Source: Mycobacteriales bacterium (GTDB lineage Bacteria > Actinomycetota > Actinomycetes > Mycobacteriales > SCTD01). Taken from it: a DNA stretch of 32,945 bases. Made by a program: the position numbers and the translations under genes. The DNA lies in NCBI GenBank assembly GCA_046594005.1, contig JBKJQM010000293.1:1-32945 (forward strand). Direction: 5' to 3'. Below, one piece after another: positions 6,957-32,945 of this stretch. Under the pieces are notes generated by a model. The model was given only the letters and a program-made list of their open reading frames with translations. It had not been told where the DNA came from and searched no databases. Each line of letters starts with the position of its first letter. The first letter of the stretch is position 1.

Positions 6957-8266
6957 GCGACGTCGACCAGAGCCGGCAGCGGGGGCAGGCGGGGCGGAGC
7001 CGGACCGGCCGGCTGGGTGTTCCTGAGCAGCAGCGCCACGACCGCGAGGGCACCGGTGACCGGCACCAGGCGACCTTGCGTCCAGTACAGGTAGCGCGGC
7101 AGCTCCAGCACGCCGACGAAGACGACCGGGTAGGCCAGCAGCCCGACCACCGCTCCGTCCCGGAAGAGCACCCACAGCCGCCCCAGCAGCAGTCCGGCCA
7201 CGAGCATGAAGAGCAGACCACCGACAGTGCCGAAGTCCACGAAGGGTGAGCAGATGCCGCAGGGGTTGTTGAACTCGGGGTTGGTGTGCGCCCGCAGCAC
7301 CTGCGCATACACCTCGGTCGCGCTGCGCCCGGTCAACCGGGTGTAGAGGTCGAGCTGCGCGATGCCCGGCGCCGTCCAGAAGGCTTCCAGGCTGAAGTAG
7401 GGCAGCCGACCCGGGAAGTGCCCGAACTGGAGCTGCGCTGCGCCGTTGTTGTACGCGGTGGCGTAGTACCCGGCGAGGCGGTCGACGACGAACTCCGGGT
7501 AGGACGACGTGGTCCGGGTGCGGAAGAAGGTCCAGCTCCGCGAGTACTCGAAGATGCCGAACAGGACGACGAGACCGGGTAGTCCCACGGCCGGTGCCAA
7601 CGCCGCGCGCAGGTCGCCCCGGCGTTGTCGCGCCACCGCGACGACCAGGATGAAGGGCACCACCACCTCGATGAGCGCGAGTCGCTCGGTGAGGTAGAAG
7701 GCGCGCAGCAGCCCGAGCACGACGACGACGGCCATCCTGCGCGCGACGAGCGCCTGCCGGCCGCTCGTCCAGCACAGCGCGGCCAAGGTGCTGTACGCCA
7801 CCCCCAGCTGGGTGAACGACGTGATGCCGGCTATCGGAGCGAAGGCCCTCTCGATGTCGCCGGAGAAGTTGTCCTGCTGCGTCAGCGCAGACAGGAGCAC
7901 GCCCGGTGAGGCGCCGCGCAGGGCGCCCGCAGCCCCCAGGCACACGTAGCCGAACATCGTCAGCCCGAAGCACACCGCAGCGGCGCGCTCCAGCACGTCG
8001 AGCTGCGCGGAGTCCAGGGCGGCCCACCGGTCCGGCCAGCGCCGTGGAGCTGCTGCCAGAGCGACGAGCACGCCCAGGAGCAGCGTGCCTGCGGCGGCGG
8101 CGAACAGCAGGCTCGTCGTGTCGTCGAGCAGACGCGGCGTTCGGTAGAGCAGCCGGAAGCTCAGGTCCGAGGTCGACCAGGCCAGCCAGATGGACACCGG
8201 GAGGACGAGGAGCAGACCGCCGACAGGGGACGCCCACCACAGACCGTGGGCCGGTCCCCGGCTCAC
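6953..8266 (-). CDS. Polytopic membrane protein, oligosaccharide repeat-unit polymerase (Wzy-like)
   Basis: 437 aa and multi-TM, with a large loop containing YSRSWTFFRTRTTSSYPEFVVDRLAGYYATAYNNG. It sits between a co-polymerase gene and the flippase gene. Its start overlaps the upstream stop (8263-8266). Confidence 0.65.
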   Translation of the reverse strand: MSRGPAHGLWWASPVGGLLLVLPVSIWLAWSTSDLSFRLLYRTPRLLDDTTSLLFAAAAGTLLLGVLVALAAAPRRWPDRWAALDSAQLDVLERAAAVCFGLTMFGYVCLGAAGALRGASPGVLLSALTQQDNFSGDIERAFAPIAGITSFTQLGVAYSTLAALCWTSGRQALVARRMAVVVVLGLLRAFYLTERLALIEVVVPFILVVAVARQRRGDLRAALAPAVGLPGLVVLFGIFEYSRSWTFFRTRTTSSYPEFVVDRLAGYYATAYNNGAAQLQFGHFPGRLPYFSLEAFWTAPGIAQLDLYTRLTGRSATEVYAQVLRAHTNPEFNNPCGICSPFVDFGTVGGLLFMLVAGLLLGRLWVLFRDGAVVGLLAYPVVFVGVLELPRYLYWTQGRLVPVTGALAVVALLLRNTQPAGPAPPRLPPLPALVDVA

Positions 8267-10167
8267 TGCCTGGCGCTCTGCTGCAGCGGGTCGAGGGCTC
8301 CGACGGCCGCGGTCACGTCCGGCGACTCATCAGACGTGCCCGCGGCAGCTGTCGGCTCGTCCCCAACCAGTGGTGGTGCAGCCTCTTCGACCGGCCGCGT
8401 GCTGCTCGGTCCGGTCCTTCGCCCGGCGCGCCGGGCCCAGGATCCGGCCGTGGCGGCGGCAGGTGCCTGCTGCACGGCCTCGACCGCGGGTGGCTGCTCG
8501 ACGGCTTCGACGATCGCAGGTGGCTGCTCGACGGCTTCGACCGCGGGTGCCTGCTCGACGGCCTCGACCGCAGGTGGCAGCTCGACGGCGTCGACCGCGG
8601 GTGCCTGCTCAGGCGCTGCATCGGCAGCGTCGGCGCTCGGGCCCAGGTCCTGCGGACCGCCCGGCAGCGCCGGCGACTGCTGCGGGTCCCGGGACCGGCG
8701 CAGGCCTGCCACGCGTGCACCGAGGCGGTGCGCCCGGCGGGGGTGGACGAGGAGCGCGCCGAGCAGGGGGATCGCCTGCCGCTCGAACATCTGCTGGACC
8801 GTCTCGACGTCGGCGCGGTGGGTGACGTAGCGACCCACGACCAGCACCGCACCGCCCGCTCGCTCGGCGAAGTCCACTGTCGTCGTCGAGTCCGACAGGG
8901 ACGGCGCGTCGACCACGACGGTCATGCCCGTGCCGATGCACGCGTCGAGCAGCCCCTGCGCCGACAGCTCCCGCAGCAGCAGGCGGTCACCGTCGCCCGG
9001 CCCTCGGGCCAGCACGAGGACGCCGGGGACGCTGCTCGACACGGCAGAGGCGAAGACGTCGCCAGGCGTCAGGATGCCGGTCGGCGCCGTCGTGAGACCC
9101 CGGTCGGCCCCGGCGACGCCCAGCTTGTGGGCCGCGGTCCCGTCGCGCCCCTGGATCACGTCGGCCGCCAGCACGAGGAGCACGTCCGAGCGCTCGGACA
9201 GGCACACGGCCGCCGCGGCCGCCGTGAAGCTCGTGCCGACTCGCGACGTCGCGCCGAGCAGGACCAGGACGCCGCCACGGCCGGGCCGGACGAGCTGCGC
9301 GACGAGCAGCCGCAGCGCCCTGGCTGCAGGCCCCTGCCCGGCGAAGTCCTCGAGCCCCCCGGAGTGGTGACGCAGCTCCGGGTGCAGGACCGGGAAGCCC
9401 CCGCCGGCGAGGTCTGCCCCCGAGCGCACCCGTCGCGTCAGCCGGTTGACCAGCATGAGGAGAAGGACTGCGAGGACCGCGCCGACGAGCGCGCCCAGTG
9501 CGCCGTCCCGTGTGACGGGCGGGACGCCGCCGCCACTGGCAGTGGGTGCTTGCACCACGGTCACCGACTGCTGCACGTCCGCCGTGGCCCGGTAGAGCCC
9601 GCTGCGCACCGCGAGCAGCCGGCCGTACTCGCCCCGCAGGGCGGACGCGCCCAGGCCATCGTCAGACAAGCTCTTCTCGAGGCGGCTGAGCTCTCCGTCC
9701 ACGATCGCCGCGGCCCGGTCGACCTGTGCCCGCAGGCGGGCCTCGCGATCAACCGAGTACGCGGCGATGACGGCTTGGACGGAGGACAGCGCGCGCGCCG
9801 ACGTCGCTGCCTCTGCGGTGACGCTGACGATGGTGCTTGACCCCACCTGCACCGCCGTGTAGCTCACGGGCTCGGAGCCACCCAGACGCTTCTCCACGTC
9901 CCGGTGCAGGCTCGGTCCGCTCAGGACGATGAGCTCGCTCTGCACCATCGCCGTCGGGTCCTCCTGAGGCGCCGGCACGTCCTGGTCGAGGGCGGACGGC
10001 AGCGCGACCGAGATGACCGCCTTGGCGCTCGGGAGCTGAGGATGTGCGCGAGCCGCTGCGAGGCCAGCAGTCCCTCCGAGCAGGCCACCGACGAGCAGGA
10101 AAACGAGCAGGACCAGCGGCCGTGGCCGCGCCGGCTGCAGGCGTGACGCCGTGTTCGCCACAGCCAT
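8263..10167 (-). CDS. Polysaccharide co-polymerase (Wzz-type, 2 TM plus coiled periplasmic region) fused to a BY-kinase-like P-loop domain and a repetitive C-terminal tail
   Basis: Start chosen at the ATG at 10167, preceded by AGGGAGG. The track start at 10257 adds 30 codons with visibly lower GC3. TM1 is PLVLLVFLLVGGLLGG and TM2 is LGALVGAVLAVLLLMLV. The P-loop region reads LGATSRVGTS (no Lys), and the Walker B-like motif is MTVVVDAPS. The tail contains PAVEAVEQ repeats. Confidence 0.75.
   Translation of the reverse strand: MAVANTASRLQPARPRPLVLLVFLLVGGLLGGTAGLAAARAHPQLPSAKAVISVALPSALDQDVPAPQEDPTAMVQSELIVLSGPSLHRDVEKRLGGSEPVSYTAVQVGSSTIVSVTAEAATSARALSSVQAVIAAYSVDREARLRAQVDRAAAIVDGELSRLEKSLSDDGLGASALRGEYGRLLAVRSGLYRATADVQQSVTVVQAPTASGGGVPPVTRDGALGALVGAVLAVLLLMLVNRLTRRVRSGADLAGGGFPVLHPELRHHSGGLEDFAGQGPAARALRLLVAQLVRPGRGGVLVLLGATSRVGTSFTAAAAAVCLSERSDVLLVLAADVIQGRDGTAAHKLGVAGADRGLTTAPTGILTPGDVFASAVSSSVPGVLVLARGPGDGDRLLLRELSAQGLLDACIGTGMTVVVDAPSLSDSTTTVDFAERAGGAVLVVGRYVTHRADVETVQQMFERQAIPLLGALLVHPRRAHRLGARVAGLRRSRDPQQSPALPGGPQDLGPSADAADAAPEQAPAVDAVELPPAVEAVEQAPAVEAVEQPPAIVEAVEQPPAVEAVQQAPAAATAGSWARRAGRRTGPSSTRPVEEAAPPLVGDEPTAAAGTSDESPDVTAAVGALDPLQQSARQ
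8467..8610 (-). repeat. In-frame tandem repeat, five units of 27 nt (one of 30 nt) plus a partial unit, encoding (A/P)PAVEAVEQ
   Basis: On the + strand the units start at 8467, 8494, 8524, 8551 and 8578, with a partial unit at 8605. The consensus is ctgctcgacggcttcgaccgcgggtgg. The repeat lies inside the 3' end of the co-polymerase CDS. Confidence 0.9.
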
Positions 10168-10253
10168 GTCAGAGCCTCCCTGTGCGGGCCTGCACCAGCC
10201 GCGTCCCCGCGGCACGAGGCTACCGGGAAGCGGCGCATCTCGGACGTCGACGC

Positions 10254-11150
10254 TCACCCCTCCGGCGGCACCGGCGGCGGGGGACGCCAGTGCGCGGCCC
10301 GGACGTCGCCGAAGGGCCGCTCACGCAGCCCCTCGAGGCGACCGAGCAGCCGTGCCCGCGCGAGCCGCAGGGAGAGCGTCGGGGACGGGTCGTGCGCGAG
10401 CGCGCGCACAACCGGCCCGGCCAGGATCCGGAGCCGCGCCGCCAGGGGGTAGTCGTGCAGGCCGTAGACGCGGCCCGTCCCGCGGGCGTACGCCCTGTGC
10501 TTGGCGACGTACTCCGACGCGGTGAGGCCCCGACGCTCGCCGGATGCCCAGACGCCGACGTCCGGCCTGCTCACCACCCGGCCACCGCTGCGCAGCACCG
10601 TGAGCAGCAGGTCGGTCCCCTCCCCGGACCCCCAGGGGGACCCGCACCCGGTGCCCAGGTCCTCCCGGAACCCGCCCGCCTGGAGAAAGCACTCCCGGGT
10701 GACGAAGGTGGCTGGCTCCACCGCCAGCCAGACGGTGCGGGCGTCGAGCGGCTGCCCGGCTCCCGGCAGGACGAAGCGGGGGCCGTCCGGGTCCGCGAGC
10801 GTCGCGGCAAGTGCCGCCGGCCGGTCCGGGCCGCAGAAGGCCGCGGCGACCGCCGCCAGGCTGTCCGGCGGGTACTCGCAGTCGTCGTTCGGGAAGCACA
10901 GCACGTCGACGCTGTCGCCCAGCACGGCTACAGCGGCGTTCCGGCCGGCGCTGGCGCCACCACGGCTCTCGATGACGGTGACCGGGAACGGGAGCTCGTC
11001 GCACGGCAGGTCGAGCGGGTGCCCGGACTGGTTCGCGACGACGACTGCCGCTGGGACGTGGGTGGACCGGGCGGCCGAGCGCAGCAGGTCGCTCAGGGCC
11101 GGGCGTCCGATGGTGGGCACCGCCAGGCCGAGACGCACGGGGACCGTCAC
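10254..11150 (-). CDS. Glycosyltransferase family 2 (GT-A)
   Basis: Only the C-terminal 298 codons of track ORF 10254..11636 are protein-like. Start at the GTG at 11150 (or 11138). The N-terminus VRLGLAVPTIGRPALSDLL is GT2-like, and the motifs SAGRNAA and CFPNDDCEYP (DxD-like) are present. Confidence 0.8.
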   Translation of the reverse strand: MTVPVRLGLAVPTIGRPALSDLLRSAARSTHVPAAVVVANQSGHPLDLPCDELPFPVTVIESRGGASAGRNAAVAVLGDSVDVLCFPNDDCEYPPDSLAAVAAAFCGPDRPAALAATLADPDGPRFVLPGAGQPLDARTVWLAVEPATFVTRECFLQAGGFREDLGTGCGSPWGSGEGTDLLLTVLRSGGRVVSRPDVGVWASGERRGLTASEYVAKHRAYARGTGRVYGLHDYPLAARLRILAGPVVRALAHDPSPTLSLRLARARLLGRLEGLRERPFGDVRAAHWRPPPPVPPEG

Positions 11151-26458: not shown

Positions 26459-28162
26459 GTGCCCGCCGCCGCGTTGTCCCGACGCGACGTGCTGCTCGCC
26501 GCCGCCGGGGGCCTGGTCCTTCCCCCCTTGCTGTTCTGGCCCTTGCTGCGCGAGCTCGGGTCCGCGGTACCGAAGGACGTCGGCGACCCGCTGCCCCAGG
26601 CGTGGCAGCTGGCCTGGGGGGGCCATGCACTGCGGTCGCAGCCGCTCGACCTGTTCCAGTCGAACCAGTTCTTCCCCGGCCGCAACACACTGGCGTACTC
26701 GGACTCGCTGCTCGGCTACGCCCCGGCGGGACTGCTGGGCAGCGGCCCCGGCGATGCGGTGCTGCGCTACGACGTGCTCTTCCTCCTCGCCCCTGCGCTG
26801 GCGTTCGCCGCCACGTTCCTGCTGGCACGGCAGCTCGGGCTGGGCCGGAGTGGTGCCGCGGTGGCCGGCGTCGCCTTCGGGTTCTCGCCGTACCGGCTGG
26901 AGCAGTTCAACCACCTGCACGTCCTGAGCAGCGGCGGCATCCCGCTGGCGCTGCTGCTGCTCCTGCGCGGGCACGGTCGCGGTGACCCGCGGACGGTCTT
27001 CGCCGGCTGGGCTGTCACCGCCTGGCAGCTGACGCTCGGCTTCTCCCTCGGCCTGCTGCTCGTCTACCTCATCGGCGGCATCTGGCTGTGGCTGCTTGTC
27101 GAGTGGCTGCGTGACGGACGTCCGGCGCTGACCCGGAGCACTCTCACGGGCCATGTCGCCGGCCTCTCGCTCCTCGCGGGGACGGCGTTCCTGGTCGCCC
27201 AGCCGTACTTAGCAGTCGTCGAGGAGTTTCCCGAGGCGCGACGCACACTCGCGGACACAGCACGCTTCTCCGGGCCGTTGGTGTGGTCCTACCTGTCGGC
27301 GGCGGAGGAGTCGACGCTCTGGGGGCCGCTGACCTCAGGGGCACGACAGCACCTCACCTTCGCGTCCGAGCAGACGCTGTTCCCTGGGCTGACGGTCGTG
27401 CTACTCGGACTGTCTGGCCTGCTGTGGCGCAGAGCGCCGCTCGATCGTCGCCTCCGAGTGTTCCTCGCTGTCGCAGTGACAGCGTGCGCCGCCTTCGCCC
27501 TGGGAACCGCGGCTGAGGGTGCGCGCAGCTTCAGCCCCTACCGGCTGCTGTACGAACTGGCGCCAGGGTTCCAGGCGGTGCGGGTGCCTGGTCGCATCAC
27601 GACGCTGACGACGCTGGGACTGTCGGTGCTGGCCGGCTGCGGTGCCCAGCGGTGGGCCGGTGCCGTCGCCGCACGTTGGCCCCGCCTCGCTCCCTGGGCT
27701 GCCGCCGGCCTGGTCGGGCTCGTGCTGTTCGAGGGCTCTTCACTGCGGACGCAGGACGAGGACCCCGGTTCTTTCCGCACCCCGATCGTGGAGGCCCCTC
27801 CTGTGAGCTTTGCGGACGTCAAGGGGCCGGCGCTGCACCTGCCGGCCGAGCCGGAGGACAACCGTCGCTACCTGCTGTGGTCCACGGACGGTTTCGAGGA
27901 CATGGCGAACGGGCGGTCCAGCCTGGTGCCTCAGCGGTTCCTGGACCTGGTGGAGGGCGCAGCGACCTTCCCGGACCGCGAGTCGGTCGCGCGAGTGCGC
28001 GCCTTCGGACTGTGCACGGTGGCCCTCCATCGTGCGCACCTGGCAGGCACGCCCTGGCAGGCGTGGCAGGACCGCTCCATCCAGGGGCTCGGCATCCGTC
28101 GCACCGTCTGGGAAGACCTGGTCGTCTACGACCTCAATACGCCAGGGGGCGCCTGCCGCTGA
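26459..28162 (+). CDS. Polytopic membrane protein, possible GT-C-like glycosyltransferase with a C-terminal soluble domain
   Basis: GTG at 26459; 567 aa. The first loop reads VPKDVGDPLPQAWQLAWGGHAL, and there are about 10 hydrophobic helices. The last roughly 150 aa are soluble (YLLWSTDGFEDMANGRSS). Confidence 0.7.
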   Translation: MPAAALSRRDVLLAAAGGLVLPPLLFWPLLRELGSAVPKDVGDPLPQAWQLAWGGHALRSQPLDLFQSNQFFPGRNTLAYSDSLLGYAPAGLLGSGPGDAVLRYDVLFLLAPALAFAATFLLARQLGLGRSGAAVAGVAFGFSPYRLEQFNHLHVLSSGGIPLALLLLLRGHGRGDPRTVFAGWAVTAWQLTLGFSLGLLLVYLIGGIWLWLLVEWLRDGRPALTRSTLTGHVAGLSLLAGTAFLVAQPYLAVVEEFPEARRTLADTARFSGPLVWSYLSAAEESTLWGPLTSGARQHLTFASEQTLFPGLTVVLLGLSGLLWRRAPLDRRLRVFLAVAVTACAAFALGTAAEGARSFSPYRLLYELAPGFQAVRVPGRITTLTTLGLSVLAGCGAQRWAGAVAARWPRLAPWAAAGLVGLVLFEGSSLRTQDEDPGSFRTPIVEAPPVSFADVKGPALHLPAEPEDNRRYLLWSTDGFEDMANGRSSLVPQRFLDLVEGAATFPDRESVARVRAFGLCTVALHRAHLAGTPWQAWQDRSIQGLGIRRTVWEDLVVYDLNTPGGACR

Positions 28163-28165
28163 CCA

Positions 28166-28475
28166 CTACCGGGCCGCGAAGTAATTGGCCTCGGGGTGAT
28201 GGGCAACGATCGCCGACGTCGGCTGCTCGGGAGTCAGCTGGAAGCCCTCCCTCACCTCGACGCCGATCCCCTCGCACTCCAGCACGGCCGCGACCTTGGT
28301 CGGGTCCTCGACGTCCGGGCAGGCCGGTGGCCCCACACGTAGCGGGCGCCGCGGTGCTCGAACGTCGAGATCCCCGAGAGGTCGCGCTTCCTCGTCGGCG
28401 CAGCCGAGCTCGGCGCGCACCCGGGCATGCCAGAACTCCGCCAGCGGCACCGGCAGGTCTTGCAACTCGCGGTAC
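28166..28475 (-). pseudogene. Decayed copy of the 3' end (last roughly 100 codons) of metH
   Basis: Track ORF 28166..28465 translates to ...LAEFWHARVRAELG...PACPDVEDPTKVA...GFQLTPEQPTSAIVAHHPEANYFAAR. This parallels the intact metH end: LAEFWHARVRAELG...YPACPDVEDQTKVA...EFQLTPEQSTSAIIAHHPEAKYFAAR. My hand alignment with 31638 onward gives about 20 mismatches in the first 160 nt, then a 1-nt deletion near 28329 and a 2-nt deletion near 28387. The codons between the two deletions are frameshifted. Confidence 0.9.
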
Positions 28476-28479
28476 GCGC

Positions 28480-28692
28480 GTGCCTGTGCTGAGCCTGCTC
28501 GCGTCGCGCCTTCTGCAGTGGTCCGGCCTGGTCTCCTACGCGGTGTTCCTGTGGCACGAGCCGCTGATCTGGTCCCGGCGGCGGCACGGCTGGACCTCCG
28601 CCGGTCGGCTGGGGTTCGGACTGGCGCTGCTCCTGACGGCGTGCACGGTCGTTCCCATCGCGCTCTTCAGCTGGCGACTGGTCGAGAGGCCG
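28480..28692 (+). pseudogene. C-terminal remnant (about 70 codons) of an acyltransferase family 3 (OafA/YrhL-type) gene
   Basis: LSLLASRLLQWSGLVSYAVFLWHEPLIW...LLLTACTVVPIALFSWRLVERP matches the conserved AT3 C-terminus (G.iSY.iYLwH.P ... s.rlvE.P). No upstream AT3 body exists; the frame abuts the metH remnant at about 28476-28480. Confidence 0.6.
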
Positions 28693-28699
28693 GCGGGTG

Positions 28700-29065
28700 A
28701 CGGGCAGGAACGAGACACCGGGGACCCTCGGCGCAGCCACCCGTGCGCAGCCGGCGACTTCAGCGGACGCGACGCCCGACGGCGGGTCCGCCATCACGCT
28801 GGACCCGGACGGGTCGACGCCGAGCCGGCCCGCGACGGTCGAGTAGGGCGGTCGGGCTTGCCGATCAGCACGTCGTCGCCGGCCAGCGTCAGCGCGAACG
28901 GCCCGACCCCTGGGCGCGGCCCGCGTCGACCAGCACGCGTAAGACGACCCACACCAGCGCCACCGGCAGCCCCTCGGGATCGTGTGCTCAGAGGAGCTCA
29001 CCAGCGGCCGGCATCCGCGACGACAGGTGCCATACCAGGGCGAGTCAGGAGCATCCGTCCCAGGG
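28700..29065 (-). pseudogene. Decayed copy of the 3' half of the HAD hydrolase gene found intact at 30896..31561
   Basis: The - strand reads PPYSTVAGRLGVDPSGSSVMADPPSGVASAEVAGCARVAAP, against the intact PEPYLTAAARLGVVPSRCVVLEDSPSGVASGEAAGCAVVAVP. Further upstream it reads MPAAGELL*AHDPEGLPVALVWVVLRVLVDA, against MPGVADLLSELDGQGVPMALVSSSYRVLVDA. There is an in-frame TGA at 28988-28990 and a 1-nt deletion near 28915. The boundaries are approximate. Confidence 0.8.
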
Positions 29066-29095
29066 GTCACAGTTCTGTGGCCCACGTGGCCTGTC

Positions 29096-30784
29096 ATGAA
29101 TGGGCAACAGAGCGTAACGTCTGCATTTGCCCGGCTTGTGAGCCCTGGGGGGGACGTGTTCGGATCGGGGCGGTTGCGCGTCGCCGGCGACGGCGCTGAC
29201 GTCGGCGGCTGGCTCAGTGCGACCTCGGCTGCCACCGAGGCCGAACCCGGGCAGCGCGCCGGGGGCCCCGCGCGCCACCGGGTGCTCGACCTCGACCGTG
29301 GGTTGGACCTTGACTGCCTGCGTCCGGCGAGCAACTCGAACAGGCCCGTCGCGCCGTCCTCCGCAAGCCCGGAGTCGCCGGTCCTCGATGTCGACACGGA
29401 CGTCGTCACCGAGCGAGCTGACCGAGCACCTTGGTTCGCGAGGTTCGGCTCCGGCCTGGTGCTCGCAGGGCTGGACATCTCCACGGCCACCACCGTGGGG
29501 ACGATGGTCGTCGTCGGGACCGGTCAGCCGCTCCGCGTCGTCGCGATGTCCCTGGGACTCGTGCTCAGCTTCCGCGCGACGGGGCTGTACCGGCGCCGGC
29601 TGTCCTTCTCCGCCCTCGACGATGCGCCGTTCCTCGTCGGGGGTGCGCTGCTCGCCACTGCTGGGGTGCTTGCCGTAGCGCTGATGCAGGGGCAGGCCAT
29701 CACGCCGCAGGGAGCAAGGGACGCCGGCTTCCTCGTCACGGTCCTGGTCAGCGCCTTGCTGCTGGAGCGCACGATGACGTACTGGGGGCTGCGTCGCTGC
29801 CGTCGCGCCGGGCTGTTCTGCGAGCGCGCTCTCGTCATCGGTGCCGGCCACGTCGGCCAGCGGCTCGTGCGGAACCTGCAGGAGCACCTCGAGTACGGCC
29901 TGGTCCCGATCGGTTTCCTCGACTCACACCCCCGCGTGGGCACCGCAGACGAGCTCCCCGCCCCGGTGCTGGGCGGCTACTCGAAGCTGGCGGACGTCAT
30001 CCGCGAGTACCGCATCACGAGGGTCATCGTCGCGTTCAGCGCCGTCCGCGAGGCGGGGCTGGTCGACGTGCTGCGCACGTGCGACCGGCTCGACTGCGAG
30101 CTCTCCTTCGTACCGCGGCTCTTCGAGCTCCACCGCCGGACCCGGTCCATGGACGAGGTCTGGGGCCTCCCGCTCATGCACATGCGCCGCGCCCCCTTCC
30201 GCTCCTTCTCCTGGCGGCTGAAGCGCGTCTTCGACATCGTCATGGCTGCGACGGGCCTGCTGCTGCTCGCGCCGGTGCTCGCTGCGTGCGCCCTGCTGGT
30301 CCGTCTCGAGAGCGGGCCGGGCGTGCTGTTCCGTCAGGAGCGGGTCGGGTTGGACGAGCGACCGTTCCAGATCCTCAAGTTCCGCACCCTGCGTCCCCTG
30401 GACGACGATGAGGCCGCGGTGCGCTGGACCGTGTCCGGCGATCCACGCATCGGGCCGGTCGGGCGCCTCATGCGCACGACCTCGCTCGACGAGCTGCCCC
30501 AGCTCTGGAACATCCTGACGGGCCGCATGAGCGTGGTGGGGCCGCGTCCTGAGCGGCGCCACTTCGTCAGCCAGTTCTCCAGCCACGTCCCGCGCTACAC
30601 CGCCCGGCACCGCGTTCCAGCGGGCCTGACGGGCTGGGCCCAGGTCCACGGCTTGCGCGGCAACACCTCCATCGAGGAGCGCGCGGTCTTCGACAACGCC
30701 TACGTGGAGAACTGGTCTCTCTGGGGCGACGTCAAGATCGTGCTGCGGACAGCCGGATCGGTGCTGCGCCGCACGGGCGGCTGA
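29096..30784 (+). CDS. Polyprenyl-phosphate sugar phosphotransferase (large WbaP/CpsE-type priming glycosyltransferase)
   Basis: Four N-terminal TM segments, a Rossmann-like middle domain (ALVIGAGHVGQRL) and a catalytic domain with KRVFDIVMA, FRQERVG, KFRTL, DELPQLWNIL and SVVGPRPE. The start is uncertain. The ATG at 29096 is followed by about 14 low-GC3 codons, so the GTG at 29138 or at 29156 is also plausible. Confidence 0.9.
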   Translation: MNGQQSVTSAFARLVSPGGDVFGSGRLRVAGDGADVGGWLSATSAATEAEPGQRAGGPARHRVLDLDRGLDLDCLRPASNSNRPVAPSSASPESPVLDVDTDVVTERADRAPWFARFGSGLVLAGLDISTATTVGTMVVVGTGQPLRVVAMSLGLVLSFRATGLYRRRLSFSALDDAPFLVGGALLATAGVLAVALMQGQAITPQGARDAGFLVTVLVSALLLERTMTYWGLRRCRRAGLFCERALVIGAGHVGQRLVRNLQEHLEYGLVPIGFLDSHPRVGTADELPAPVLGGYSKLADVIREYRITRVIVAFSAVREAGLVDVLRTCDRLDCELSFVPRLFELHRRTRSMDEVWGLPLMHMRRAPFRSFSWRLKRVFDIVMAATGLLLLAPVLAACALLVRLESGPGVLFRQERVGLDERPFQILKFRTLRPLDDDEAAVRWTVSGDPRIGPVGRLMRTTSLDELPQLWNILTGRMSVVGPRPERRHFVSQFSSHVPRYTARHRVPAGLTGWAQVHGLRGNTSIEERAVFDNAYVENWSLWGDVKIVLRTAGSVLRRTGG

Positions 30785-30895: not shown

Positions 30896-31561
30896 TCAGG
30901 GGCATGACGGCTGCACCAGTGCCCGCAGCGAATCGACGTCCAGCCCCACGAGGGACCCGACCACCACCCGGCGTGGACGCGGCTCGAGCACCACGCCAGC
31001 AATGCTCGGGACCGCGACGACCGCGCAGCCGGCCGCCTCGCCACTTGCGACGCCGGACGGGGAGTCCTCCAGCACCACGCACCGGGAGGGGACCACGCCG
31101 AGCCGGGCTGCCGCCGTGAGGTAGGGCTCGGGGTCCGGCTTGCCGCGGGTCACCTCGTCACCGGCGAGCGTGAACGCGAACGGACCGATCCCGTGGGCCA
31201 GCACCGCGTCGACGAGCACGCGGTACGACGAGGACACCAGCGCCATCGGCACCCCCTGGCCGTCCAGCTCCGACAGCAGGTCCGCGACGCCCGGCATCAA
31301 CGGCAGGTCGCCGGCGAACAGCTCGCGCATCCGGAGCAGCAGCCAGGCCGACGTCTCGGCAACGCGCGCCGCGGTGGCCTCGACCCCGAAGTACGTCAGG
31401 ATCCCGGGCACGGCGACGTCGAGCCGGGTCCCGACGACGCGCGCCTTGACCTCGTCGTCCCACTCGCCGCCGAGCGAGCGCGCGAGCTCGACCTCGGCCA
31501 CGGTCCACAGCGGCTCGCTGTCCACCAGCAGGCCGTCCATGTCCCACAGGACCGCGTCCAC
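30896..31561 (-). CDS. HAD-superfamily hydrolase (beta-phosphoglucomutase/phosphatase-like subfamily IA)
   Basis: Motif I is LWDMDGLLVDSE, motif II is LVSSS, motif III is RGKPDPEPY and motif IV is VLEDSPSGV. Start chosen at the GTG at 31561. The track start at 31582 adds 7 codons with poorer GC3. Confidence 0.85.
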   Translation of the reverse strand: MDAVLWDMDGLLVDSEPLWTVAEVELARSLGGEWDDEVKARVVGTRLDVAVPGILTYFGVEATAARVAETSAWLLLRMRELFAGDLPLMPGVADLLSELDGQGVPMALVSSSYRVLVDAVLAHGIGPFAFTLAGDEVTRGKPDPEPYLTAAARLGVVPSRCVVLEDSPSGVASGEAAGCAVVAVPSIAGVVLEPRPRRVVVGSLVGLDVDSLRALVQPSCP

Positions 31562-31638
31562 TAGCGGCGCACCGCGGTGCACAGGGCGCCGAGGAGCAGC
31601 AGGCCGAGCAGGGTGCGGGGGTCGGTGGTCGTCCCCAC
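31561..31638 (-). CDS. Candidate 25-codon micro-ORF encoding a hydrophobic peptide that bridges metH and the HAD gene
   Basis: GTG at 31638..31636 and TAG at 31563..31561. The peptide is VGTTTDPRTLLGLLLLGALCTAVRR. All 25 sense codons end in G or C. The start overlaps the metH TAG by 1 nt and the stop overlaps the HAD GTG by 1 nt (TAGTG at both ends). Confidence 0.4.
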   Translation of the reverse strand: MGTTTDPRTLLGLLLLGALCTAVRR

Positions 31639-32945
31639 TACCGGGCCGCGAAGTACTTGGCCTCGGGGTGATGGGCGATGATCGCCGACGTCGACTGCTC
31701 GGGCGTGAGCTGGAACTCCTCGCTCAGCTCGACGCCGATCCGGTCCCACTCCAGCAGCTCGGCGACCTTGGTCTGGTCCTCGACGTCGGGGCAGGCGGGG
31801 TAGCCCCAGGCGTAACGGGCGCCGCGGTGCTCCAGCTTGAGGATCCCGGACAGGTCGCGCGCGTCCTCGTCGCCGAAGCCCAGCTCGGCCCGCACCCGCG
31901 CGTGCCAGAACTCCGCCAGCGCCTCGGTCAGCTGCACGGACAGGCCGTGCAGCTCGAGGTACTCGCGGTAGGAGTCCTTGGCGAACAGGTCGCCGGCGAC
32001 CTCGCTCACCCGGCGGCCCATGGTCACGACCTGGAAGGCGACGACGTCGACCTCGCCGGACTCCTGCGGCCGCCAGAAGTCGGCCAGGCACAGCCGCCGG
32101 TCGCGGCGCTGGCGCGGGAAGGTGAAGCGTGCCCGCTCGTCGCCGGTGGAGGAGTCCAGCACGATCAGGTCGTCGCCCTTGGAGACCGCCGGGAAGTACC
32201 CGTGCACGACGGCGGCCTGCATGATGCCCTCGGTCTGCACCTGCGACAGCAGGGCGCGCAGCCGCGGCCGGCCCTCGGTCTCGACGAGCTCCTCGTAGGA
32301 GGGGCCGGCGCCGGCGCGCGAGCCGCGAAGCCCCCACTGGCCGAGGAACAGCGCCCGCTCGTCGATCCACGAGGCGTAGTCGGCCAGCGCGATGCCCTTG
32401 GTGATCCGCGAGCCCCAGAAGGGCGGTTCGGGGATGCGGTTGTCGGTCGCCACGTCCGAACGGCCGGCCGGCTCGTCGGAGGCCTCGTCGGCCTCCCGGG
32501 CCGCGCGCGACTCCGCGATCGCCCGGGAGCGCGCATGACGCGCCTTGCGCTCGTCGTCCTTGGCCTGCTGCTCCGCCGAGGCCTCGGGGGTCACGAGGCC
32601 GCGCTTCTCGCCCATCAGCTGGTCCATCAGGCGCAGGCCCTCGAAGGCGTCGCGCGCGTAGGTCACCCGTCCGTCGAACACCTCGTCGAGGTCCTGCTCG
32701 ACGTACGCCCTGGTGAGCGCCGCCCCGCCCAGGATGACCGGGTAGTTCGACGCCATCCCGCGGGAGTTCATCTCCAGCAGGTTCTCCTTCATGATCACCG
32801 TCGACTTGACGAGCAGCCCGGACATGCCGATGACGTCGGCGCCGTGCTCCTCGGCCGCCTCCAGGATGGCGTTGACCGGCTGCTTGATGCCGAGGTTGAC
32901 CACGGTGTAGCCGTTGTTGGACAGGATGATGTCGACGAGGTTCTT
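31638..32945 (-). CDS. metH: Cobalamin-dependent methionine synthase, 3' part (end of the B12-binding domain plus the AdoMet activation domain); 5' end outside the window
   Basis: The frame is open to the right edge (KNLVDIILSNNGYTVVNLGIKQ...). Supporting motifs are GADVIGMSGLLVKST and, in the activation domain, FWGSRI, RFTFPRQ, RGARYAWGYPACPD and IIAHHPEAKYF. Confidence 0.95.
   Translation of the reverse strand, partial: KNLVDIILSNNGYTVVNLGIKQPVNAILEAAEEHGADVIGMSGLLVKSTVIMKENLLEMNSRGMASNYPVILGGAALTRAYVEQDLDEVFDGRVTYARDAFEGLRLMDQLMGEKRGLVTPEASAEQQAKDDERKARHARSRAIAESRAAREADEASDEPAGRSDVATDNRIPEPPFWGSRITKGIALADYASWIDERALFLGQWGLRGSRAGAGPSYEELVETEGRPRLRALLSQVQTEGIMQAAVVHGYFPAVSKGDDLIVLDSSTGDERARFTFPRQRRDRRLCLADFWRPQESGEVDVVAFQVVTMGRRVSEVAGDLFAKDSYREYLELHGLSVQLTEALAEFWHARVRAELGFGDEDARDLSGILKLEHRGARYAWGYPACPDVEDQTKVAELLEWDRIGVELSEEFQLTPEQSTSAIIAHHPEAKYFAAR

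Follow-up and report, generated by a model that had tools for sequence, protein, structure and literature searches.

We report that the 32,945-nt stretch of DNA analyzed here (the window), a contig of a metagenome-assembled genome, carries a second, displaced copy of the 3′ end of metH, which we call metH′. It is a non-functional pseudogene relic, homologous to the end of the resident metH gene, truncated at its 5′ side, and joined sharply and head to head to an acyltransferase gene of which only a stump (AT3′) survives (Table 1). The relic is old and decayed, and its sequence places it in the small clade of the resident gene. On balance, we favor the reading that metH′ is the scar of an illegitimate, homology-anchored recombination that took place as glycan-locus DNA next to metH was being acquired or exchanged; from the pattern of the remains we infer both the recombination mechanism and an inter-lineage origin of the fragment.

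Table 1. Features at and around the two metH ends (positions in the window)
Feature	Position	Strand	Description
orf567	26459..28162	plus	Intact; stop 3 nt from the metH′ stop, convergent
metH′	28163..28480	minus	5′-truncated, frameshifted pseudogene copy: last 105 metH codons, stop (28166-28168), and 3 nt
metH′ 1-nt deletion	28327..28328	minus	Resident base 31800 absent; in a G run; from alignment blocks
metH′ 2-nt deletion	28388..28389	minus	Resident bases 31862-31863 absent; in a CG repeat; from alignment blocks
metH′ 12-nt (4-codon) deletion	28446..28447	minus	Resident bases 31922-31933 absent; from alignment blocks
metH′/AT3′ junction	28480..28481		Head-to-head fusion of two 5′-truncated relics; uncertainty at most 6 nt
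AT3′	28481..28695	plus	Last ~72 conserved codons of an Acyl_transf_3 gene (O-acyltransferase); ~318 N-terminal codons missing
Priming polyprenyl glycosylphosphotransferase	about 29156..30784	plus	CoA_binding_3 and Bac_transf; PF02397, E = 3e-63; TIGR03025, E = 2.4e-116
HAD-IA phosphatase	30896..31561	minus	Core partner of metH; Pfam
Small ORF	31561..31638	minus	Shortened to 25 codons and stop; TAGTG overlaps with the metH stop and with the HAD start
Resident metH tail	31635..31967	minus	Last 109 codons, stop (31638-31640), and 3 nt

A displaced and decayed end of metH

A BLASTN comparison of positions 28050–28650 with positions 31500–32945 returns a single strong match in direct orientation, in which 272 of 333 positions are identical (82%, E = 1e-83). 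The same repeat was recovered independently by a repeat search of the window, as three collinear families (D2, D6, and D5) with spacings of 3,472, 3,473, and 3,475 nt, so that start-to-start distances lie between 3,472 and 3,475 nt and the two copies flank 3.15 kb of DNA. These results bear out the initial annotation, which had described a copy of the metH 3′ end on the same strand about 3.47 kb from the real one and had proposed such a comparison, naming a lack of significant similarity as the outcome that would count against it. The limits of the copy can now be given more closely: similarity had been thought to stop at about 28476, and it runs to 28480, where the unrelated remnant on the opposite strand, correctly noted at the time, proves to be AT3′. 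Both copies have the stop codon and three further bases in common, as had been claimed; the bases themselves read cca on the plus strand (TGG in the sense of metH) and not cac. The sequence ccactaccgggccgcgaagta is found at 28163 in metH′ and at 31635 in the resident gene. Identity rises to 88% over the 165 nt closest to the stop, a value that fits the hand estimate of about one mismatch per 8 nt in that part. The two tails share exact stretches of 18–20 nt, the stop region included, the longest being 20 nt. We considered recent gene conversion or crossover between the two copies and rejected it, as there is no high-identity block and no exact match longer than those 20 nt.

The two frame-breaking deletions that had been placed by hand near 28329 (1 nt) and 28387 (2 nt) are confirmed within two nucleotides of those positions, and a further deletion of 12 nt, or four codons, had gone unnoticed. 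Between the 1-nt and 2-nt deletions, 61 nt (RDLSGI..HRGARYVWGH) are out of register with their flanks, which is the scrambling of the RGARYAWGY codons that had been described. Because the two deletions sum to three, the register is restored beyond them, and an ORF of 99 codons (28166..28465, minus strand) stays open across the region. When the indels are repaired, the translation matches PF02965 (E = 8e-15) at profile positions 163–256 of 273, and the fragment thus corresponds to part of the Met_synt_B12 activation domain.

Several lines of evidence show that the fragment is dead. It retains ~105 of roughly 1,180 codons and thus lacks ~90% of the gene; upstream of the tail, the remainder has been replaced by the acyltransferase relic on the other strand. 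Among 57 near-invariant residues (at least 95% conserved in 159 orthologues), 12 are changed in metH′ even after indel repair, versus two in the resident metH. Both of the resident changes fall on positions that are also changed in metH′; one is an identical Y-to-H replacement, and at the other the resident has A and metH′ has V. Ten of the replacements at near-invariant residues are unique to metH′. With a partial domain, a frame broken by 1-, 2-, and 12-nt deletions, and conserved residues lost, the fragment does not qualify as a functional MetH or Met_synt_B12 domain. No Rfam family, promoter-like site, terminator-like site, or tRNA gene was found associated with it, and today it has no role beyond forming part of the roughly 1-kb spacer that separates orf567 from the priming transferase gene on the plus strand.

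The substitutions tell the same story of decay. Compared with the resident gene and its closest relative, the metagenome locus L082, metH′ has 37 unique differences (10, 10, and 17 at codon positions 1, 2, and 3), the resident has nine (0, 1, and 8), and L082 has 13 (2, 1, and 10); 26 substitutions are derived on the metH′ branch and are distributed across all codon positions. At positions 1 and 2 taken together, metH′ has 20 changes in 210 sites (~9.5%), which is roughly the third-position rate of the functional lineages and thus indicates unconstrained drift for about the whole time since the window and L082 split. The third-position excess on the metH′ branch is modest (17 observed versus ~9 expected); it is the only hint of a separate functional phase of metH′ in a donor.

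The junction and its surroundings

The joint between the two relics is sharp to within 6 nt and lies between two unrelated genes, each of which has lost its 5′ part. Homology to metH stops at 28480, and acyltransferase homology starts at residue 10–12 of the query, that is, at nt 28480–28486. A plot of G+C by codon phase (GC3) switches phase at the junction and so shows the same mosaic independently. A near-palindrome, GGTACGCGCGTGCC (28471–28484), spans the joint; it may be a product of chance at such a G+C content, or it may be tied to end joining.

The identity of the stump comes from a phmmer search of 1.84 billion representative proteins, which gave 461 matches. In the best of these (P0241, 430 aa, E = 5.6e-16), residues 317–389 align with query residues 10–81 (nt 28480–28695), and each of the seven full-length matches scanned is an Acyl_transf_3 protein (PF01757). 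By BLASTP, identity is 59%. Searched directly, the stump has no match in Pfam, and in NCBIfam it reaches SucT at E = 0.018. It lacks a complete membrane domain of ~320 positions, retaining only the part that matches residues 317–389 of the ~430-aa members. Its coding GC3 signal is limited to about 28477–28700, and the ~450 nt that follow, up to the priming transferase gene, show no coding signal in codon-phase G+C.

On the other side of metH′ lies orf567, whose homologues of 556–572 aa cover 98%–99% of it and in which no Pfam family is found. The orf567 family is large (1,090 proteins with E <1e-3 among the candidates scored), nearly all of its members being unnamed and without a Pfam domain; a few homologues carry PF19510, many matches come from Solirubrobacterales genomes, and wherever contexts were viewed the homologues sit in glycan loci. 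Judged by its hydrophobic sequence, orf567 is probably a membrane glycan-processing protein. Beyond it come the genes of the Wzm and Wzt ABC transporter and then ~24 kb of genes for glycosyltransferases, deacetylases, a methyltransferase, and an oxidoreductase. The window has a G+C content of 70%–77%, and none of its 29 ORFs scanned belongs to an integrase or transposase family.

The interval between the two metH ends holds the priming transferase gene, convergent with metH and HAD, whose start we place at 29156 because the database copy of the protein has 542 aa. The small ORF between metH and HAD reads VGTTTDPRTLLGLLLLGALCTAVRR; it is shortened relative to its counterparts, which in L082 and L167 are membrane proteins of 95 and 103 aa, respectively. 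Its overlap with the metH stop and the HAD start, in the motif TAGTG, suggests translational coupling, and the true start of HAD is probably the GTG at 31561 rather than 31582. The resident metH itself enters the window with its 3′ 1,308 nt and runs off the contig end at 32945; this portion comprises the B12-binding and Met_synt_B12 domains (TIGR02082 positions 750–1181 of 1182).

The metH flank in relatives and the age of the relic

For comparison we assembled 160 metH loci from scans of genomes and metagenomes with the metH C-terminus. A HAD gene lies no more than 500 nt downstream of metH in 135 of the 153 informative loci, and the synteny of the small ORF and HAD with metH across relatives marks metH, small ORF, and HAD as a core unit. 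The pairing is widespread and not universal: one relative (L166, 10001–10654) has a HAD phosphatase, 76% identical to that of the window, between purD and purB with no metH nearby. After HAD, two relatives (L001 and L167) continue with a PD-(D/E)XK nuclease, an FAA hydrolase, and homogentisate dioxygenase. None of the content of the first 30.8 kb of the window was found in the metH flank of any relative. Since the genes that follow HAD in such relatives are ordinary core genes, the glycan locus, at least 30 kb long, is specific to this lineage at this site. Gene calls and Pfam marks in two of the contigs compared (L081 and L167, ENA contigs ERZ250395xx) are unreliable, as both are full of frameshifts and their metH and glycan genes are split over several frames.

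Glycan genes do occur at the same flank in two other relatives, both metagenome contigs. L115 (1–2928) lacks HAD and has, 36 nt past the end of metH, a convergent Bac_transf gene that is confirmed by Pfam and 51% identical to that of the window; in L086 (11300–13800), a Bac_transf-like gene stands between metH and HAD. It seems that the metH 3′ flank repeatedly attracts glycan genes in this group. A second metH tail within 10 kb was found in none of the 160 loci, and the displaced end is hence not a general att-like phenomenon. We looked for the two arrangements that could have been parental, metH converging on orf567 and HAD–Bac_transf with an intact AT3, and found neither in the 160 metH loci nor in three loci with orf567 homologues (L081, L168, and L169), a sample in which close relatives are very poorly represented. 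L115, where metH converges on Bac_transf, offers an analogous order and no more. No metH lies near the orf567 homologues in those three loci, and neither arrangement is seen around the nearest homologues of Bac_transf (L162–L165) or HAD (L166 and L167). One of the orf567 loci, L168, has an Acyl_transf_3 gene 54% identical to AT3′ about 1.1 kb from its orf567 homologue.

The initial annotation had taken metH′ as the exact meeting point of glycan locus and core genome, and as the footprint of DNA inserted or exchanged beside a conserved gene. The footprint stands: there is a displaced dead copy, a seam between two truncated genes, homology that ends at the metH stop, and glycan genes at the same flank in L115 and L086. 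The boundary does not, as the priming transferase gene and AT3′ intervene between metH′ and the HAD–metH core, and the present boundary between locus and core must therefore lie between 30784 and 30896. What metH′ marks is a seam inside the glycan locus, or else a boundary as it existed in an earlier or donor genome.

The closest relative, L082, is a metagenome contig of only 1.68 kb. The resident metH tail is 92.8% identical to it and at most 82% identical to the 159 other loci, whereas for metH′ the corresponding identities are 82% (resident), 81% (L082), and no more than 74% (the 159 others); the fragment must thus come from the same small clade. Consistent with this, metH′ and the resident share a rare Y-to-H replacement at a 99%-conserved site. 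Informative sites polarized with outgroups leave the branching order flat: four unite the resident with L082, three unite the resident with metH′, and two unite metH′ with L082, with no spatial clustering. The three sequences therefore form a trichotomy, and the relic is old and of the same clade rather than a recent duplicate. Such a trichotomy accommodates an inter-lineage origin and an old duplication in situ equally well. Mismatches between metH′ and the resident number 10, 11, and 25 at codon positions 1, 2, and 3; when polarized, they divide into 8, 8, and 16 on the metH′ side and 2, 2, and 8 on the resident side. These counts do not separate import from decay in place, the sites being few and third-position G/C flips homoplastic. 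Along the resident metH, sliding identity to L082 climbs from 76%–86% to 87%–94% towards the 3′ end, tracking domain conservation, and no mosaic breakpoint is visible in the 1.3 kb present of a gene that is cut by the contig end.

Possible origin of the relic

In the reading that we favor, one end of the event would have been anchored by homology in or near metH, and the other would have been joined illegitimately, as in homology-facilitated illegitimate recombination. The metH tail would thereby have been severed from the rest of metH and linked, by non-homologous joining, to an internal part of an Acyl_transf_3 gene. The event could have run in either of two directions, which suit the data to the same degree. 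In the first, an ancestral metH converged directly on orf567; a piece of ~4–5 kb from a sister lineage, comprising the 3′ part of metH, the small ORF, HAD, Bac_transf, and part of AT3, would have used metH as its anchor, with an illegitimate joint placed 318 nt short of the old stop, and would have displaced the native metH tail. In the second, a large glycan block would have been imported from a sister lineage where it lay directly against metH, carrying the donor's metH tail along, and would have been joined illegitimately inside a resident AT3 gene. The two ends of metH′ are asymmetric: the inner end lies in mid-gene, and the outer end lies 3 nt past the metH stop and directly against the intact stop of orf567. 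This asymmetry is expected if metH′ and orf567 once formed a working boundary that was kept by selection; for a randomly duplicated piece, an end point at stop plus 3 nt would be a coincidence of roughly 1%.

[quoted passage not shown] 2002; Meier and Wackernagel 2003; all as cited in PMC5361080), and it is proposed in PMC5361080 as a source of the orphaned and displaced 3′ ends in Rhs, CDI, and T6SS effector loci. The window resembles such products in its conserved anchor gene, in the non-homologous DNA inserted beside that anchor, in the old 3′ end pushed downstream as a truncated direct repeat, and in a sharp junction that is probably non-homologous. Unlike those loci, it involves a housekeeping gene rather than a polymorphic toxin, and it holds a single relic rather than an array. 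Orphan toxin tips come with immunity genes; the displaced metH end, in contrast, has no useful module and has simply decayed. The setting also differs from that of the systems in which the process is described, this being an uncultured high-G+C actinobacterium in which the mechanism is deduced from its remains. We know of no natural competence in the lineage and of no indication that it is naturally transformable.

A second point of comparison is the switching of surface-polysaccharide loci by way of conserved flanks, as in the pneumococcal cps locus between dexB and aliA and the enterobacterial O-antigen locus between galF and gnd. Here too a variable glycan locus lies beside a housekeeping gene, relatives differ at that place, and gene remnants mark the block boundaries. 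In clean homologous exchange one sequence takes the place of another and no duplicate remains; the window, by contrast, would have had one illegitimate end, leaving a duplicate and a truncated acyltransferase.

The main alternative is that metH′ is an old copy of the resident gene's own 3′ end made in situ, either one end of a segmental duplication later trimmed or filler DNA taken up where a break or deletion arose between orf567 and AT3, which has decayed neutrally since and involves no foreign DNA. We consider this a real possibility, if a less probable one. Copy and source are only 3.47 kb apart and on the same strand, and the identity of metH′ to the resident exceeds that to any of the ~160 other loci, with L082 close behind. 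The three sites that group metH′ with the resident point the same way, and the match between its position 1 and 2 changes and the functional third-position rate is what neutrality since the split would give. In addition, the arrangement in L168 means that orf567 and AT3 could have been parts of one pre-existing locus. Against this, the 318 nt alone are repeated and the sequence outside both copies is unrelated, which excludes a simple tandem duplication; an in-situ copy would also require chance to have set its end 3 nt beyond the stop and to have placed it precisely next to the stop codon of an intact gene. Also unfavorable are the four sites that unite the resident with L082 and leave out metH′, three of which are at well-conserved positions, and the third-position excess on the metH′ branch. 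Tandem segmental duplication was tried as a candidate in its own right and rejected, the shared 318–333 nt having unrelated flanks on both sides, with duplication followed by later replacement still compatible with the data.

A broader claim can be framed: that the 3′ flank of the metH–HAD operon is the standard surface-glycan hot spot of this clade, swapped between species with metH as the anchor, and that metH′ is the dated fossil of one such exchange, ended by an illegitimate joint made, for example, by Ku/LigD end-joining. We put this forward tentatively, and it may well prove too broad. If it were true, the metH–HAD flank of these little-sampled, Frankiales-like soil actinobacteria would act as galF and gnd do around enterobacterial O-antigen loci.

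An artefact of assembly, in the form of a chimera or a false duplication from two related populations co-occurring in the metagenome, is unlikely. The window does span a complete contig of 32,945 nt, its metagenome-derived relatives include noisy assemblies (L081 and L167), and of the two small indels one falls in a G run and the other in a CG repeat. However, the metH/AT3 join offers no shared sequence for an assembler to follow; the 10 unique replacements at near-invariant residues and the 12-nt deletion rule out that metH′ is simply the end of a functional metH from a second population; and orf567, Wzm, Wzt, Bac_transf, and HAD are all full length and free of frameshifts, indicating a clean assembly.

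Still less credible is the duplication of an att site by a site-specific integrative element that targets the metH 3′ end and carries a replacement tail. Elements that integrate in the tRNA, dusA, and guaA manner bring a replacement gene end with them and displace the original one. The window has the corresponding direct repeat of a gene end, one copy belonging to the functional metH and the other out of place and in decay, around a segment of 3.47 kb, with exact 18–20-nt stretches shared between the copies, among them the stop region. Yet no integrase is among the contents of this interval, which are limited to HAD, Bac_transf, and the AT3 stump, and no tRNA gene is present. The would-be insert includes core genes rather than cargo, as synteny with metH extends to the small ORF and HAD in 135 of 153 relatives; recurrent occupancy of the site is not seen, with a second metH tail within 10 kb in 0 of 160 related loci; and the inner end of metH′ is fused to a truncated gene, not to element DNA.

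That the 99-codon ORF is an expressed small paralogous domain, the alternative named in the initial annotation, is the least probable reading of all and did not hold up: although the 2-nt and 1-nt deletions restore the frame and the former third positions retain a G+C content of 94%, the 20 codons that separate the indels are out of register, the domain is partial (profile positions 163–256 of 273) with 12 of 57 near-invariant residues lost, the exact product is not on record, no promoter-like site was found, and at 72% G+C chance alone will produce long open frames.

To a known kind of feature, the pseudogene relic at a recombination seam, metH′ adds an ordinary new instance in an uncultured actinobacterium, with no new mechanism or element. 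Its value lies in what it says about the locus. The scar shows that two or more blocks went into the glycan cluster, and that the block with the priming transferase, on the HAD side, has a history distinct from that of the roughly 28-kb block that ends with orf567. With more genomes of the clade, metH′ would be a handy marker for how and when the locus was exchanged.

For annotation, positions 28163–28700 should be given as two pseudogene relics, metH′ and AT3′, and not as genes, and the long ORFs that cross them should be treated as spurious. Two such open frames, 27652–29199 (plus strand, 515 codons) and 28252–29493 (minus strand, 413 codons), run across both relics and the spacer; they are artefacts of high G+C, with no coding-phase G+C signal along them. 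Elsewhere in the window, at 8454–8622, a 27-nt unit occurs in five copies arranged head to tail, which are 69%–86% identical. They sit within the long ORFs 8263..10257 (minus strand) and 7906..9840 (plus strand) and probably encode a 9-residue peptide repeat in a protein without a Pfam family.
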